A stretch of 64,000 bases of DNA from an uncultured Spirochaetota bacterium (GTDB lineage Bacteria > Spirochaetota > B62-G9 > DRHN01), in assembly GCA_964433545.1 (NCBI GenBank), contig CAYSRJ010000003.1, positions 64,904 to 128,903 of the forward strand, in the 5' to 3' direction. Made by a program: the position numbers and the translations under genes. The notes below the pieces were generated by a model, which was not told where the DNA came from, made no database searches, and was given only the letters and a program-made list of their open reading frames with translations. Positions 5,143 through 12,900 of the stretch are shown here, one piece after another (the first letter of the stretch is position 1; the number at the start of each line of letters is the position of its first letter).

Positions 5143-5841
5143 TCACATAACCCCTTCAAAGATTACGATAACCCGTCTGTTTTTGCGCCGCCCTGCCTTT
5201 GTTTCGTTTGTCGCAACAGGGTACAGCTCACCAAACGCCCGGATGCCGATTATCTCCGGATCGATACCGAGCTCAGACACCAGGGATTGTCTTACATTTT
5301 CAGCCCGCTCACGGGAGAGTTTGTAGTTGTGCGCTTCCGTGCCCACGCGATCCGCATATCCCTCCACGATAACTTGGGTAAGCTTGGCCGTGGGGTGAGC
5401 CTTCATAAAATTCACAGCCTCATCACGTTCGTTGAGATACTCAGGCTTTATATGAGCACTGTCGATATCGAATTCGAGAGTATACTCTATTTTGAATTTC
5501 TCGCCCTCCTCGACCGCACATCCATGGGCATCGACAATGGTTCCCGGTGCCGTGTCCGGGCACCTGTCTATATCATCCGGAATGCCGTCGCCGTCGCTGT
5601 CCACCTCGACAGCCGTCACCTGCGGCTCGGCCTGCGTTTCAGCTTGCGCTTCAACCTTTTCAGGCTCTTTTTTCTCGGGTTCCTGGGGCTGGGGTTCAGC
5701 CTCTGCCTGTTTCTCAGCCTGCTGCTCAACTGCAGGCTCCTCTTTGACGCTTTCGGATTTTGTTGCGCACCCCGAAAAGACAAGGAGTACGGAAAAAAAC
5801 ACGACACCTGTTATAGTCGGAATTTTCATCAGTTTCAGCAA
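5143..5841 (-). CDS. OmpA-family peptidoglycan-binding lipoprotein with thrombospondin-type-3 (DxDGDGIPD) repeat and an E/Q/A/P-rich linker
   Basis: Lipobox ...LLVFSGC. DSDGDGIPDDIDRCPDT. C-terminal OmpA-like domain (VIVEGYADRVGTEAHNYKLSRERAENV ... NRRV). The probable start is TTG, 6 nt after GGAGGG. Confidence 0.8.
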   Translation of the reverse strand: MLKLMKIPTITGVVFFSVLLVFSGCATKSESVKEEPAVEQQAEKQAEAEPQPQEPEKKEPEKVEAQAETQAEPQVTAVEVDSDGDGIPDDIDRCPDTAPGTIVDAHGCAVEEGEKFKIEYTLEFDIDSAHIKPEYLNERDEAVNFMKAHPTAKLTQVIVEGYADRVGTEAHNYKLSRERAENVRQSLVSELGIDPEIIGIRAFGELYPVATNETKAGRRKNRRVIVIFEGVM

Positions 5842-5917: not shown

Positions 5918-6925
5918 TCAATTTTTCATGCTCGAATCGATCACTTTATCAAGCTTTTCGAGGAATTCCCTCTCTGAAAGCTCATACTTATTTATAAACT
6001 GCATGGTACCTATCTGCAGTTTCATACCCTCGGTCAAATTGGTTTTTTTGATAAACACGACCAGTATGTTCTTGTTTTCAGTAAAGGCAAGATTAATTTC
6101 GTTTCTCACGTTCCGCGACATCGCCGCATGAGGACTCATAAGAACGAGAAATTGGGTACAGTTGACAATAGCTTTCCCGACGATCTCGGGCCATTCATTT
6201 CCAGGCTCTATCCCCTCATCATACCATATTCGGTAGCGCTTCCTGTGAAGTTTTTTTATGATGCTGAAGACCGCTTTCATATCCTCATGTGCGTAGCTTG
6301 TAAAAAGGTATGAACGCACTCCATGATAAGCCTCAAAAGGCGGCTTGATCGGCGGCGCATGTCCCGTTCCTTTACTCTTTAAGGGTGATGTCTTCCTGGC
6401 GGGCTTTTTTGGAGCAGAGGTTTTTGCGGATACCTTTAGAGACGATTCCCGGTCCTTTTTCGCTGGTGATTTCTTTGCAGAGATCTTTTTTTGCACCTTT
6501 TTATCAGAGGTTTTAATTGCTGCTATTTTTTTTGCCGTGGATGTCTTTTTTGTCCCGGTACCCTTTTTTGCAGAAGCCCTGGTTGAAAGATCTTTCGAAG
6601 CAGTCGATCCGCCTTTCTTTGCCGCGGTTTTCTTCGTTCGTGATTTCGAAACAGCAGCAGGGGACGCCTTTCTTCCCGATAGTCCGGCCGAGGCTTTTAT
6701 CTTTGACCGGGCTTTTGATTTCGGTGTTTTTACTGATGCCGCAGTTTTTACTGCTGCCGTTTTATTTGAGCTCTTCGTTGCGGATTTTTTTGCAGAAGAT
6801 GTCAAGGTTTTTCCTGTCGACTTTGCGGCTTTTTTACCGGGTGCCCGTGAGGCAGATTTCAAATTCTGCTTCTTTTTAGCTGGAGTCCGGCTTTTTCTTG
6901 TCGCCTTCTTACTTCTCATGAACAT
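5918..6925 (-). CDS. TIR-domain protein with about 200-aa histone-H1-like Lys/Ala/Ser/Thr-rich N-terminal tail
   Basis: The C-terminal roughly 135 aa (SYLFTSYAHEDMKAVFSIIKKLHRKRYRIWYDEGIEPGNEWPEIVGKAIVNCTQFLVLMSPHAAMSRNVRNEINLAF...) fit the bacterial TIR fold: the conserved FISY-hED motif, then W-D, then the FLVLLSP-S motif. The N-terminus is low-complexity KKAAK/KTSAK repeats. Start chosen at the ATG 8 nt after GGGGAGAT (MFMRSKK); the track ORF extends to 7045. Confidence 0.8.
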   Translation of the reverse strand: MFMRSKKATRKSRTPAKKKQNLKSASRAPGKKAAKSTGKTLTSSAKKSATKSSNKTAAVKTAASVKTPKSKARSKIKASAGLSGRKASPAAVSKSRTKKTAAKKGGSTASKDLSTRASAKKGTGTKKTSTAKKIAAIKTSDKKVQKKISAKKSPAKKDRESSLKVSAKTSAPKKPARKTSPLKSKGTGHAPPIKPPFEAYHGVRSYLFTSYAHEDMKAVFSIIKKLHRKRYRIWYDEGIEPGNEWPEIVGKAIVNCTQFLVLMSPHAAMSRNVRNEINLAFTENKNILVVFIKKTNLTEGMKLQIGTMQFINKYELSEREFLEKLDKVIDSSMKN

Positions 6926-6957
6926 AGTCATATCTCCCCTGTACAAATGTATCCGAT

Positions 6958-9084
6958 CTATCCGATTTCGTTCCTCCGCTTGACGAGGTATATGGGATAG
7001 GTGCCAAACTTTTTCGGCAGAACAATAACACCAACGTATATGCACTCCAGCAGGTTTTGACTGTGTGATACAAGCAGTGACGCAAACTGCTCACTTGCAT
7101 ACACGTTTCCCGGGTTCGTTATCGGCTCAATACGCGCTGCTCTGTTTACATGACGGCCGAAATAGTTCATCTTTTTTAATATCGGCTCTTTTGCCCCAAA
7201 AACTGGACCGACATGCAGTCCTATCCGTATTTTCAGATCTTCAAAGAGGTACAGGCTCTTCCAGTCCTTTTTTTTCAATAAATCGCGGAGCTCGAGTGCA
7301 TATTCTGCTGCAGAAATAAGATCGTTGTATACGAAGTACAGAGCATCCCCCCAAATATTTTTAAAGATAGGCTTATGCTTCGTATTTTTCAGGCTTTGAG
7401 CGATGGCCCCAAGATAATTTTTTATAAAGAAGGGGATCTGCTCCTCTTTCAATGCACTGAACCCGGCAAGATCCGCAAACAACATTGCCTTCACCGAACG
7501 GTTCACATCCTTGACAGTGTCAGTCAGTTTAACAGGCGGAGCAGGAGAATGCAGTGTATCCGAAACAGATCCTTCGGCATTCATTTGACCCGTTTCCCCT
7601 TCTTCCGACGTACGTCTGTTGTCGGGAGAATCTGTTTCAAGTAATACGTTCGGGGATGGACCACTATCAGACACACTGCCGCTGTCCGGCATTCCAGTGT
7701 CCTCTATATCGTTACCCAGCAAAACGCCACGATGGGTTTTTCTTTCAGCACGCTGTTTTGAACGATTTTTACTAATCCTGTTAATATCAATGATCTCAAT
7801 AGGATATTTCTTATCTTCCCATGTTGTAATGAAATCGTACGTTCCTCCCGTCTTTCTACTCCCCTTGCCGTCCCACACTGCAATGAGAACGGACTCTGTT
7901 TCCAGAAGTTCGCTTCTTAAAAGTGTTTTTCCCATAATAATTCTATTCGCGTAATCGAACAGGAGGTCGTCACCAGAGTACTTTCCCTCCGTCGCCATGA
8001 GGACTGTGCTTCGTTTCAGGACTCGCTGTACTCGTTCAACCCATGCTCTGCCGGCAAACTCAACACTCGCATGTATAAAATCCTCTAATACGAAAGGAAG
8101 GATAATATTTGTTTCTGCTTTTCGTGTCTGCATGCACTCTAAAAAGAGTGTATCCGAACCGCAGGCCGCAGATGAGTAGCCTATTCCGGGATTGACACGT
8201 TCAAGCACATCACAAACCGCATTTTTTACATCTTCCTCGATGTCCGGCGGAAAACGGGAAGGCCTTCTTCCGGGTTTATCGATCATATGACCGGTAAAGG
8301 CGACAACAGGCGGCACCTTTAAAAGGGCAAATATTTCTTCTTCAATGTCGATATAATTCTTAAGCAGGCCCATCTGCTTGCGCGTGCTCGCCAGGTATGA
8401 AAAATTCTTCCCGCTGATACGCTGTGCGAATTTTAAGTACTGCAGGGCCTTCTCTGAATCTCCAAGAAGCAGAAGTCCCTCTCCCATTGTCGCGAGTATC
8501 CAGTAGTCACGTTTTTCACCCGCACTCATTCGATCCAGGCATATTTTCAACACCATCTTTGCGAGTCTGCCGGCATTTTCTCTTTCACCGAGCATAAGGC
8601 TCATACTCGCAGCATTTATTCCCGAATAGTAGCCTCTGCTCTTATTGAACGCCTTTAGATAGAAATTTTTTGATTTCTCGAGGTACGTGGTGTCACCCTG
8701 TGCCCCTCCTGAAATCACCCACATATCCTTGTACACCCGGCCCAGGATACCGAGCGTTTCTTCATCAAAATGGCCCTTTTTAACCAGGCCGGTGAGTATT
8801 TGCCGTGCCCTGTTTAAAAACCCGCATTTAATGAGCGAAAGGGCGTACAACTGTGTCAATCGTAGGTTTTCCGGAAAATATTCGAGCCCTTCCTTGAGAA
8901 CATCATGCGCAAACATCGACTGCCCGAGTTTGTCCGCGGTTTCACCGAGCCGAATGTAGAAGTGTGGCTGAGAGCTCCATGTAGAGTCGTCCTTGGAGAC
9001 CCAGAGCTCATGTATGACGTTTTCTATGTCTTCGGACTTTGAATCGAGATAGGTATTGAATTTTTTTATGCTTTTCTCTTCCAT
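6958..9084 (-). CDS. multidomain TPR-repeat + SLOG (LOG/DprA-like Rossmannoid) + class III adenylyl/guanylyl-type nucleotidyl cyclase protein
   Basis: C-terminus MLFADLAGFSAL ... WGDALYFVY ... IRIGLHVGPV ... GRHVNRAARIE carries class III cyclase catalytic motifs. The middle region VVAFTGH..GIGYSSAACGSDTLFLECM..ILPF..VLMATEGKYSGDD..LIAVWDGKGSRKTGGTYDFITTW matches the LOG/DprA (SLOG) pattern. The N-terminal third is TPR-like helical repeats, followed by an S/D/G/P-rich linker. Start chosen at ATG MEEKSIKK after GGGGAA; the track ORF begins at a TTG at 9198. Confidence 0.8.
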   Translation of the reverse strand: MEEKSIKKFNTYLDSKSEDIENVIHELWVSKDDSTWSSQPHFYIRLGETADKLGQSMFAHDVLKEGLEYFPENLRLTQLYALSLIKCGFLNRARQILTGLVKKGHFDEETLGILGRVYKDMWVISGGAQGDTTYLEKSKNFYLKAFNKSRGYYSGINAASMSLMLGERENAGRLAKMVLKICLDRMSAGEKRDYWILATMGEGLLLLGDSEKALQYLKFAQRISGKNFSYLASTRKQMGLLKNYIDIEEEIFALLKVPPVVAFTGHMIDKPGRRPSRFPPDIEEDVKNAVCDVLERVNPGIGYSSAACGSDTLFLECMQTRKAETNIILPFVLEDFIHASVEFAGRAWVERVQRVLKRSTVLMATEGKYSGDDLLFDYANRIIMGKTLLRSELLETESVLIAVWDGKGSRKTGGTYDFITTWEDKKYPIEIIDINRISKNRSKQRAERKTHRGVLLGNDIEDTGMPDSGSVSDSGPSPNVLLETDSPDNRRTSEEGETGQMNAEGSVSDTLHSPAPPVKLTDTVKDVNRSVKAMLFADLAGFSALKEEQIPFFIKNYLGAIAQSLKNTKHKPIFKNIWGDALYFVYNDLISAAEYALELRDLLKKKDWKSLYLFEDLKIRIGLHVGPVFGAKEPILKKMNYFGRHVNRAARIEPITNPGNVYASEQFASLLVSHSQNLLECIYVGVIVLPKKFGTYPIYLVKRRNEIG

Positions 9085-9159
9085 GATTTCGTTTCCCCGT
9101 TTGTTATCCCAAATCATAGCACATTTGGAAGAAAGAGTGGGGTTTTTTTGGCATCTATA

Positions 9160-9200
9160 TTCCATTTTATTAATAATATTCTCTAATGGAGAATACAAAC
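9160..9200 (-). promoter_or_regulatory. candidate sigma-70-like promoter with overlapping inverted repeat upstream of the cyclase gene
   Basis: Minus strand reads TTGTAT-17 bp-TATTAA. The spacer contains the inverted repeat ATTCTC-taatgg-AGAAT. Weak consensus match. Confidence 0.25.
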
Positions 9201-11082: not shown

Positions 11083-12900
11083 TTAAACGGTATGCTCCGT
11101 CCTCGCGATAATATCGTCCTGCAGGGCCTCGTTCAGATCCACGAAAAACGCCGAATATCCCGCCACCCTTACCACCAGGTCCCTGTATTCATCCGGCCTT
11201 TCCTTTGCCTCTCTTAAAGTGTCCGCAGACACGACATTGAGCTGCAGATGTATATTCTTTAGCGTTATGAATCCCCTGATCAGGTCTGAAAACCTCGCAA
11301 GCCCCCGTCACCTTCAAGGGCCGAAGGATGAAACTTGAGGTTGAGCAAAGCGCCGTTTGAAGCCCTGATCTGGTCTATCCTGCTCACCGATTGCAGCACG
11401 GCAAGCGGCCCCTTTCTGTCCCTTCCTCTCACGGGAGACAGACCGCCGTCTGCAAGCGGTTCACCTGAAAGCCTGCCATCTGGTGTGGCGCCTACAGCCA
11501 AACCGAGCGGCACATGCGCGGACACGGTGTACAGTCCCGGCTGAAACTTCCCGCCCCTCTGGTTTTCATACTTCTCCACTTCACGGCTGTACAAATTCGA
11601 CCACTGGTAAGCGATTTCGTCGACTTCCGGAATATTGTTCCCGAATTTTGGAATCTTGTTCAGAATACGGTACCGGAGCATCTCATGCCTCTGAAAATTC
11701 CTGTCCAGTATATCGATCATTCTCGAGTATTCGATCTGTTTTTCTTCAAAGACCACCCTTTTTACGGAAAAAAGCGAATCGGCAATGTTCGCTACGCCCA
11801 CAGCCTGGGGGCCGGTAAAGTTGTAGAAGGCGCCACCGCCTGAAATGTCGATACCCTTTTCTAGGCAGTTGTCCACAAGTACCGAAAGAAACGGGGTCGG
11901 AAGCAGTGTATGGTGCGCAACGTCCACCGTATTACAGCCCTTCGCCATTTTTTCCACATATTTTTTGAGGTTATCCTCCATGGCATGCTCGAGAGAAGAA
12001 TAATCCCTATACGTTTTCTGCCGCATACTCACCTCTAACAGGCGGGCCGTATTGAACAGGGCAGCATCTTAAGGTATCACGAAGAAAAAAGGGGGAAAGC
12101 ACCTGGTCGAGCCTTCCCGGTGAAAACGAACTGCCGACGGACTCCAGATGAAGAATTACGAACAAAAACCAGAGCATCTGTACCGCTTCGATAAAGGTGT
12201 TGGGGGGCGAAGATGTAAGCTTTTCGCACCGTTCGGAAAACTCCTTTAGCCCCTTCCTGGAAGCCTCGTCCCTGTATCTCATAATAAATTTTGATGCCGC
12301 GCGGAGGGTGATGAGCACTGCATCATAGAAACCATGCATTTCAGGTTTATCGGTGCTCATTCTGTACTTCTGAACCTCGTCTGTCAGTCCGCCGATGCCC
12401 TTTGTAAGCCACTTCTCCGTATCGGGGATTATGTGACCCTGGGAGTGTGTCGTCTGGTTGAGGGTGTAAATACCCTTTTCAACCGGGTCCATGACATCGG
12501 TCGAAAGAGCACCAAGCAGATAATCCTTCAATGTCTTTCCCCTGAAAAAGGGAAGGACTTTTTCTCTCAACACCTGTTTATCTTCTGCCGTAATCTCGAA
12601 GGGTTCCTGCTCACGTATGCCGATCGTATCGAGCTCTTTTTCAAGCCAGTCTACAGCACCCTCAACAGCAGGCACACCCATCCTCGGAAAAACCGTTCTT
12701 CCGCCAATGATGAGCTCATCCTCACCCACTGCAATGGGTATGTTTTCAAGTATAGTTTCAAGCGCCCTTGCGCGCCTCAGAATAACGGGTTCCCCCTCCG
12801 TTTCGCTGTAGCTCTTCAAATAGTACAGACTCCTATCGAGGGATATACGCCGGTGTGTGTCCAGCACCCGGTCTTTCAGTTTCTTGATGCGCGGGGACAA
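11083..12900 (-). pseudogene. glycyl radical enzyme (PFL2 / glycerol-dehydratase-like family), frameshifted and probably internally deleted
   Basis: Three pieces in three frames. The N-terminal 297 aa (12007..12900) read MSPRIKKLKDRVL...WFLF..GRLDQ. The middle 250 aa (11280..12032) read ..GGGAFYN..GATPDGR..SNGALLNLKF. The C-terminal roughly 65 aa (11083..11281) read RVAGYSAFFVDLNEALQDDIIARTEHTV*, the glycine-radical motif. Total is about 610 aa, against about 750-850 aa for intact family members. Confidence 0.7.

Follow-up and report, generated by a model that had tools for sequence, protein, structure and literature searches.

Immune signalling in bacteria, plants and animals depends centrally on TIR domains, and the triggers of the bacterial ones are mostly unknown. 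The enzymatic activity of these domains generally needs self-association, as in SARM1, plant TIR receptors, TIR-SAVED and SPARTA. In the Thoeris systems of bacteria, a TIR protein makes a molecule derived from ADP-ribose (ADPR), which is perceived by a SLOG domain in type I and by a TPR effector in type VIII (bioRxiv 10.64898/2025.12.03.692087). The effector of type VIII joins TPR with a hydrolase and responds to cyclic ADPR (cADPR), and the SLOG domain of type I binds 3'cADPR (bioRxiv 10.64898/2025.12.03.692087). SLOG domains in general are nucleotide- and ligand-binding modules (PMC6459960). In this study, a 64-kb stretch of DNA from an uncultured Spirochaetota bacterium (contig CAYSRJ010000003.1) was analysed, which is referred to as a whole as the window. 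It carries on its minus strand a gene for a TIR protein with a long polycationic N-terminal tail and, immediately upstream, a gene for a partner protein that joins TPR-S repeats, a predicted SLOG fold and a class III nucleotide cyclase. By analogy with Thoeris, the two conserved genes may form a relay, with the TIR protein tethered to a polyanion and signalling to the SLOG/TPR-S cyclase, a tentative reading to which we give somewhat less than an even chance.

Comparison with described systems

The module would work most like a Thoeris-type TIR/SLOG pair, an analogy that fails on the output domain and on the genomic behaviour. Like Thoeris, it consists of two genes, one of which encodes a small TIR protein that here scores above the cut-off of the ThsB_TIR hidden Markov model (HMM), and as in Thoeris the partner has candidate domains for reading a signal derived from ADPR, namely a predicted SLOG and/or a TPR of the TIR-associated kind. 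In contrast to the cell-arresting or killing effectors of Thoeris (SIR2, membrane-disrupting, nucleotide-degrading), the output here is a class III cyclase, which is absent from the type I-XI Thoeris effectors in a 2025 survey (bioRxiv 10.64898/2025.12.03.692087). Moreover, the TIR protein carries a polycationic tail of ~190 residues or, in its sisters, a polytopic membrane domain, and the pair resides among housekeeping genes, stable across about 50 Spirochaetota species and with no viral or plasmid copies found. With Pycsar (PycC + PycTIR), the pair shares a class III-type cyclase gene beside a TIR gene and a weak similarity to the PycC HMM. It differs in that the TIR protein has no cyclic-nucleotide-binding domain and that the cyclase has N-terminal TPR-S and SLOG regions, not known from Pycsar cyclases.

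The tail itself resembles the C-terminal domain of histone H1, Chlamydia Hc1/Hc2, Pseudomonas AlgP and the tail of mycobacterial HupB in being K/A/S/T/P-rich, predicted to be disordered and highly positive, and it contains S/T-P-x-K motifs (TPAK, SPAK, SPLK). Unlike these proteins, to which no homology is detectable, it has no globular histone or HU domain, its lysine density is lower (27% K), and its fusion partner is an enzyme or signalling domain instead of a DNA-binding fold. A lysine-rich, phosphoinositide-binding segment also precedes the TIR domain of Brucella TcpB (BtpA). TIRAP/Mal is likewise reported to have a basic N-terminal segment that stands directly before the TIR domain and serves localisation (PMC5796906). 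In both proteins the segment spans some tens of residues and is directed to membranes of the host, whereas the tail described here has about 190 residues, belongs to the own cytoplasm of a free-living bacterium and is coupled to a cyclase partner. The middle domain of the partner, in turn, shares with YpsA, DprA and LOG the predicted Rossmann-like SLOG fold and Gly-rich loops (G-H, G-x-D, G-G-T). It differs from them in that no Pfam SLOG family matches it and that it sits between TPR-S and the cyclase.

The initial annotation of the window, made by a reader of the letters alone, had remarked that it knew of no description of a TIR with such a tail. In the searchable literature, a scope outside which the 2015 SLOG-defining paper lies, no description was found of such a TIR or of a TIR/SLOG-cyclase module, nor of TPR-S combined with a cyclase or of DUF4071 combined with TIR. 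The two unusual features of the system are the conserved, polycationic and disordered tether on the TIR and the cyclase output.

The TIR protein and its polycationic tail

The maximal open reading frame (ORF) at 5918..7045 on the minus strand holds both the tail and the C-terminal TIR domain. Three closely spaced ATG codons (6931, 6925 and 6919) lie 3' of a GGGGAG motif. Translation likely starts at ATG 6925 because GGAG is located 8 nt upstream and because this codon, the third of the frame, is kept as ATG in the two closest relatives (L006 and L007). Residues of the TIR protein are numbered from ATG 6931 (337 aa). The positions of all features of the pair are collected in Table 1.

Table 1. 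Features of the gene pair and of the opposite strand, in window coordinates
Feature	Position	Strand	Remarks
Polycation-tailed TIR gene	5918..6925	-	335 aa from the likely start ATG 6925; stop codon 5918..5920; other in-frame ATGs at 6931 and 6919
Shine-Dalgarno-like GGGGAG	6934..6939	-	8 nt 5' of ATG 6925; read from the sequence
Polycationic N-terminal tail, predicted disordered	6362..6925	-	Residues 3-190; composition, AlphaFold2 (AF2), conservation, ratio of nonsynonymous to synonymous substitution rates (dN/dS)
Conserved linker HAPPIKPPFEAYHGVRSYL into the first TIR strand	6305..6361	-	Motif near-invariant in alignments A1 and A3
TIR domain	5984..6304	-	Pfam TIR_2 envelope, residues 210-316
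Codon of Glu278, TIR catalytic-glutamate position	6098..6100	-	Motif SRNVRNEIN; invariant in A1 and A3
Antisense Phe-rich shadow ORF	6345..6983	+	212 aa; called as a gene in L001-L004; judged not to be a gene
Partner gene, TPR-S/SLOG/class III cyclase	6958..9198	-	Maximal ORF 746 aa; likely start ATG 9084 or the public start giving 719 aa
Partner TPR region (TPR-S / MAP3K TRAFs-binding-type repeats)	8332..9021	-	Residues about 60-289; Pfam and conservation profile
Partner domain of predicted SLOG superfamily	7765..8331	-	Residues 290-478; AF2 and Foldseek; no Pfam model
Partner low-complexity linker	7489..7764	-	Expanded and mildly acidic in the window lineage; short and basic in most orthologues
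Partner class III nucleotide cyclase catalytic domain	6961..7488	-	D576, D618, N685 and R689 conserved

The K/A/S/T-rich tail that had been noted on the TIR protein is borne out by the ORF, its translation and its composition, and it is in frame with the TIR domain. The low-complexity span is present as described, while its extent is about residues 6-190 instead of 5-230. Over residues 6-190, the composition is K 27%, S 17%, A 17%, T 11%, R 5%, G 5% and P 4%; K+R exceeds D+E by 56, there are 15 KK pairs, F, W and Y do not occur at all, and hydrophobic residues (ILVMFWY) account for 15 of 185 positions. The Shannon entropy is 3.3 bits in the tail versus 4.1 bits in the TIR part, and within the 64-kb window the tail is the only polybasic stretch of sustained length in a credible frame. 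Disorder was among the checks that had been proposed. In the AF2 model, which was based on 35 homologues, residues 1-190 show no secondary structure and a predicted local distance difference test score (pLDDT) of about 50; the tail is predicted to be intrinsically disordered. The proposed likeness to H1 and Hc1 proved right for composition and not for homology: PF07382 HC2 scored 17.1 bits on the tail against a cut-off of 40 (E=0.006). As this is far below the cut-off, "H1-like" can refer to composition only. Beyond the TIR families, this weak HC2 match was all that Pfam gave on the TIR protein, and no linker-histone globular domain was matched.

The tail is followed by the linker HAPPIKPPFEAYHG and then by the TIR domain. 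The linker contains PPxKPPFEAY, and the motif xKPPFEAYxGxKPY, near-invariant in the two alignments, is also found in tail-less relatives of other phyla. Pfam assigned the domain to PF13676 TIR_2 (59.1 bits, cut-off 28, E=7.8e-16, residues 210-316), PF01582 TIR (30.1 bits, cut-off 21.3) and PF08937 ThsB_TIR (28.9 bits, cut-off 21.2), and the PADLOC ThsB model matched weakly (E=9.5e-4). Residues 200-337 were modelled confidently by AF2 as a flavodoxin-like TIR fold (pLDDT about 90), for which Foldseek returned the TIR domains of SARM1, TLR15 and SPARTA as the closest solved structures. Glu278 aligns with the Glu of WCWDELEQA in the TIR domain of Cat1 and with the Glu of TLR TIR domains. The alignments show a TIR domain that is canonical by sequence and keeps Glu at the catalytic position. 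No cyclic-nucleotide-binding or other recognisable ligand-binding domain was detected in the TIR protein by Pfam, the remainder being disordered in the AF2 model.

It had been stated initially that the stretch from the tail to the TIR domain offers no in-frame start with a Shine-Dalgarno sequence. Strictly, this does not hold, since GTG 6319 has GAGG upstream; TTG 6862, TTG 6805, GTG 6496 and ATG 6280 are further in-frame candidates. As such internal starts exist, an additional tail-less isoform may be made.

Conservation, translation and misannotation of the tail

The TIR core alone, with the tail left out, served as query in the homologue search. It returned 203 homologous proteins with a core identity of 55-75%, nearly all from Spirochaetota metagenome-assembled genomes (MAGs), the majority of which have a K/R/A/S/T/P-rich N-terminal extension of variable length. 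From species-representative genomes, 76 genomic loci were taken, and their reading frames were re-derived from DNA. A partner homologue lies immediately upstream of the TIR gene on the same strand in 48 Spirochaetota loci, where the frame of the TIR core is open back to within 4-26 nt of the partner stop. Tails of the orthologues have a median length of 204 aa (typically 110-300) and a median K+R content of 37.5%, with usually 0-3 residues of D+E. The ratio R/(K+R) tracks the G+C content (GC) of the locus (r = 0.75; GC range 41-69%); the codons thus shift along with the GC of the genome, whereas the composition is retained. The comparison of orthologous sequences showed conservation of the length, the charge and the near-absence of acidic residues, and not of the tail sequence itself. 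The tail evolves fast in sequence: when the window is compared with the two relatives closest to it, dN/dS is 0.37-0.69 in the tail versus 0.05-0.08 in the TIR domain, and all indels are in frame, giving tails of 193-199 aa.

A recent repeat expansion, named initially as a finding that would refute the proposal, was rejected. No tandem DNA repeat was found in the tail, which is therefore not a simple repeat expansion, and basic tails of similar length are kept in 46-48 Spirochaetota species, so that an expansion restricted to one lineage does not account for them.

The public gene calls on identical contigs (L001-L004) give another picture, in which the TIR protein is cut to 120 aa at ATG 6280 and the antisense 212-aa ORF is annotated. 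A like antisense call of 171 aa exists as a hypothetical protein in a distant complete genome (L005 7439..7954; CP070696.1). If these calls were right, the tail would be untranslated, and the real genes would be the short TIR and the Phe-rich antisense ORF. By codon statistics of the single sequence, the sense frame and its antisense mirror cannot be told apart, and the codon model scored even the TIR domain poorly. Nevertheless, a protein started at 6280 would lack the first strand of the TIR domain and, with it, the invariant F-x-S-Y-x-H motif. Among 46 species, breaks in the mirror frame occur in 10 and the sense frame is open in all, a count that holds partly by construction, as the tail was defined as an in-frame ORF; the real observation is that an in-frame ORF spans the whole gap from the partner stop to the TIR core. 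With the sense frame open throughout and the mirror frame broken in 10/46, the Phe-rich ORF is a shadow of the K-rich sense frame, and the earlier view of it as spurious was confirmed. The in-frame indels between close relatives and a tail dN/dS below 1 speak against an untranslated tail as well, and several public representatives are already called at full length, tail included. The untranslated tail was therefore rejected and is left with next to no probability. The mis-calls probably arise because codon statistics leave the choice of frame undecided. It looks like a systematic error of gene callers on K/R-rich disordered regions, in which an antisense shadow ORF is called and the real gene is truncated, and owing to this failure of annotation the tailed-TIR architecture is mostly invisible in public protein sets.

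Some loci deviate in the region of the tail. In L041, L028 and L052, 290-580 nt separate the cyclase stop from the first in-frame TIR start, and in L041, which is a long-read MAG, the cyclase match is also split over frames. Assembly frameshifts are the likely cause of these gaps, and shorter tails are possible. In R-rich, high-GC lineages (L021, L020, L034; P0039, P0049, P0051, P0061), the motif RFPKAPARAA...RFSLRKLAARLxPPxKPP stands between tail and TIR, and another lineage has SLQKVLAAHGVEKKAPAVRPPFPAY in its place. These junction motifs are possibly short structured or interaction elements, which the window protein lacks.

The TPR-S/SLOG/cyclase partner

The partner gene ends about 30 nt before the TIR start on the same strand, and no terminator-like site was found on the coding strand between the two genes, which are apparently co-transcribed. 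Its TPR region was matched by PF20308 (72.7 bits) and PF13281 (58 bits), the TPR-S and MAP3K_TRAF_bd families, and its C-terminus by PF00211 Guanylate_cyc (48.6 bits, cut-off 21.9). The metal-binding Asp pair and the transition-state Asn/Arg of the cyclase (D576, D618, N685, R689) are at least 95% conserved among 44 orthologues. The PADLOC PycC model also matched the cyclase, weakly and over the generic cyclase core only (21.4 bits, E=2.8e-5).

The middle domain gave no match in Pfam (even at E up to 10), NCBIfam or PADLOC. It was modelled by AF2 with a pLDDT of 93.5, and Foldseek placed YpsA (2nx2) as its best match (E=7e-8, template-modelling (TM) score 0.67), followed by DprA, ShosA, MCP and LOG. 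On the strength of these models, it is a Rossmann-like fold of the SLOG superfamily, from a family that has no Pfam model. Stand-alone homologues of ~190 aa exist (P0121-P0127), with the motifs LFTGHMID, GACGGD and WDGKGGDGPGGT, and the Gly-rich SLOG motifs G14/H15, G58/D60 and G162/G163 are invariant in the fused and the stand-alone forms. A word-indexed search with the SLOG domain alone returned 7 stand-alone proteins and missed the orthologues, which were recovered with the full-length partner as query.

The linker between SLOG and cyclase has about 90 residues in the window lineage, where alone it is Ser/Asp/Glu/Pro-rich and mildly acidic; elsewhere it is basic, with a median of 35 aa and a net charge of +7. 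Charge pairing between the tail and an acidic linker was considered and rejected, as the linker is acidic only in the window lineage and the charges of linker and tail are uncorrelated.

Distribution and relatives of the gene pair

The pair is flanked by ordinary metabolic and transport genes, and any one family of flanking genes is common to at most 8 of 43 loci, the pair itself being constant. The divergence of the TIR protein is correlated with that of its partner (r = 0.75), and a search of viral contigs and plasmids gave no relevant copy of the pair. In these comparisons of loci, the pair behaves as a stable chromosomal gene pair and not as a mobile defence cassette.

To survey the relatives, 1.8 billion representative proteins were searched by HMM without filters, and the nearest relatives of the TIR fell into three architectures. 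One, which makes up at least 12 clusters at 50% identity, joins the polybasic tail to a C-terminal TIR, another joins a polytopic membrane domain to a C-terminal TIR, and the last consists of tandem TIR arrays or of an N-terminal TIR with a long C-terminal region. The N-terminal-TIR form is seen in other phyla among the genomic loci, with neither tail nor cyclase. In the membrane type, 11-12 transmembrane-like segments precede the TIR (P0280, P0282, P0287), and each of these genes adjoins a TPR-S/cyclase gene. The membrane-type partner of L082 is 40% identical to the window partner over the TPR, SLOG and cyclase regions. As the membrane-type sister TIRs have the same partner, the conserved unit is the TIR with the TPR-S/SLOG/cyclase protein. 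The swap between tail and membrane domain makes the N-terminus of the TIR protein look like an exchangeable tether or sensor module, and it points to tethering or sensing as the role of the tail.

Variants of the arrangement were also observed. In one sub-lineage the gene order is opposite, with the tailed TIR first (L046 5659..8011; P0064, P0084, P0095, P0096, P0099, P0105, P0115), and the partner-like gene downstream is much more divergent (33% identity). A tailed TIR of 360 aa is encoded at L055 4634..5716, on a contig of GC 67% that is binned as Anaerolineae; a mis-binned contig, horizontal transfer or an uncoupled copy could explain it. The TIR relative P0292 (L083 87..1914) has 3-5 transmembrane-like segments at its N-terminus and adjoins a second small TIR gene instead of a cyclase, an indication that this TIR subfamily combines its modules in still other ways.

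Two further genes of the window may be mentioned. The product of the gene downstream of the pair (5143..5841, minus strand) is a lipoprotein of the OmpA family, in which a low-complexity spacer rich in E/Q/P/K/A and an Asp-rich motif like thrombospondin type 3 were noted; in most other species this gene is absent from the position next to the pair. At 11280..12900 on the minus strand (L001 1381..3001), a PFL-like glycyl-radical enzyme adjoins its radical-SAM activase. It is called as two pieces (297 and 233-250 aa) and not as one protein of ~800 aa, so the gene may be split or degraded, or the enzyme unusually small.

Proposed mechanism and rival explanations

The initial annotation had read the fusion as an NAD-hydrolysing or signalling domain tethered to a polyanion. 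With the upstream partner and the membrane-domain sister TIRs, both of which it had missed, the reading moves to a relay of two genes, in which the TIR protein would generate the signal and carry an exchangeable tether at its N-terminus. In this relay, the N-terminal module would tether the TIR to a cellular surface, which in the case of the tail would be a polyanion, most likely nucleoid DNA or RNA and less likely polyphosphate or anionic lipid. Crowding of the TIR on the scaffold, or its release from it, would control self-association, which in characterised systems switches on the cleavage or cyclisation of NAD+ by TIR domains; a polycation of +56 could set the local concentration of the TIR and thus gate its activity. 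The NAD-derived product would be read by the SLOG and/or TPR-S of the partner, as in Thoeris, whereby the cyclase would be activated and a cyclic mononucleotide emitted as the output. The physiological role could be defence or stress signalling. The basic linker in most orthologues of the partner would fit an encounter of the two proteins on one and the same polyanion.

Several points weigh against such a relay. We infer the NADase or cyclase activity, the ligand binding by SLOG and the polyanion binding by the tail, and likewise the direction of signalling from TIR to cyclase, which is taken by analogy with Thoeris. In view of the membrane-domain variants, the tail could also be membrane-targeting rather than directed to nucleic acid. 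The housekeeping neighbourhood and the lack of copies on the viral contigs and plasmids searched are atypical of defence systems, and therefore the analogy with Thoeris may mislead on the biological role. Moreover, no receptor for cyclic nucleoside monophosphates (cNMPs) is linked to the pair, and for the tailed TIR of L055 the 4.6 kb upstream contain no cyclase gene.

The flow of information might be the reverse, as in Pycsar, so that the TPR-S/SLOG/cyclase protein senses and its cNMP activates the TIR as an NAD+-depleting abortive-infection effector, which the tail localises or restrains. The layout of a cyclase and a TIR gene resembles Pycsar and related cyclase-TIR systems, the weak PycC match (E=2.8e-5) agrees with it, and TPR-S has been named a sensor repeat. 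We consider this flow quite unlikely, as it demands of the TIR protein a cNMP-binding or other ligand-binding domain that is not recognisable there, leaves the conserved SLOG domain of the cyclase protein without a role and sits badly with a pair found outside defence islands and mobile contexts. Signalling from the inner face of the cytoplasmic membrane is the essence of another explanation, in which the tail holds the protein electrostatically to anionic lipids of the membrane and is a lengthened form of the lysine-rich, phosphoinositide-binding motif of TIRAP/Mal and Brucella TcpB. The polybasic lipid anchors that are known have few residues, usually with hydrophobic ones among the basic. 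The tail has about 190 residues and a charge of +56, with no aromatic or clustered hydrophobic residues, and in a bacterial cytoplasm nucleic acids would be expected to bind most of such a polycation. On the other side stand the closest TIR relatives with the same cyclase partner, which carry the 11-12-helix membrane domain, and the precedent of TIRAP, for which a lysine-rich N-terminal membrane-targeting segment beside the TIR is reported (PMC5796906). The basic linker of the partner in most species fits a soluble polyanion as well as a membrane, and on balance a lipid anchor appears unlikely.

Nucleic acid could also be the substrate rather than the scaffold. Some plant TIR domains bind dsDNA or dsRNA and release 2',3'-cNMPs. 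By the same logic, the tail would deliver the TIR to a nucleic-acid substrate for 2',3'-cNMP synthesis as in plants, or to chromatin-like targets, and the protein would be a nucleoid-associated enzyme. The composition of the tail is like that of nucleoid- and chromatin-binding tails, including the weak HC2 match (E=0.006), and DprA, which binds ssDNA, is among the fold matches of the SLOG domain. The TIR sequence, however, has no specific nuclease-type pointers, its best structural matches are NAD-cleaving TIR domains, and membrane-anchored sisters with the same partner are hard to reconcile with a nucleic-acid substrate, which makes this the most improbable of the three. A bolder form of the relay would make it a resident second-messenger system of Spirochaetota and not an anti-phage cassette. 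The H1-like-tailed TIR would coat the nucleoid or RNA and report on the state of this polyanion, for example whether it is exposed, damaged or invaded by foreign DNA, through an NAD-derived signal, which the SLOG-gated class III cyclase would turn into cAMP or cGMP; the sister version would report from the membrane. We regard this form as rather unlikely.

Significance

The long conserved polycation is the only extra element of the TIR protein, which suggests activation or restraint by non-specific polyanion binding, and the swap for a membrane domain in the sister proteins supports this idea of a polyanion trigger. If true, polyanion binding would be a simple trigger mechanism. The presence of an NAD-signal type of receptor (SLOG/TPR-S) together with a cNMP cyclase in the partner implies cross-talk between two families of second messengers that have so far been studied separately. 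If the proposed relay holds, the pair would be the first TIR-to-cyclase relay and its tailed protein the first bacterial TIR scaffolded by a non-specific polyanion.

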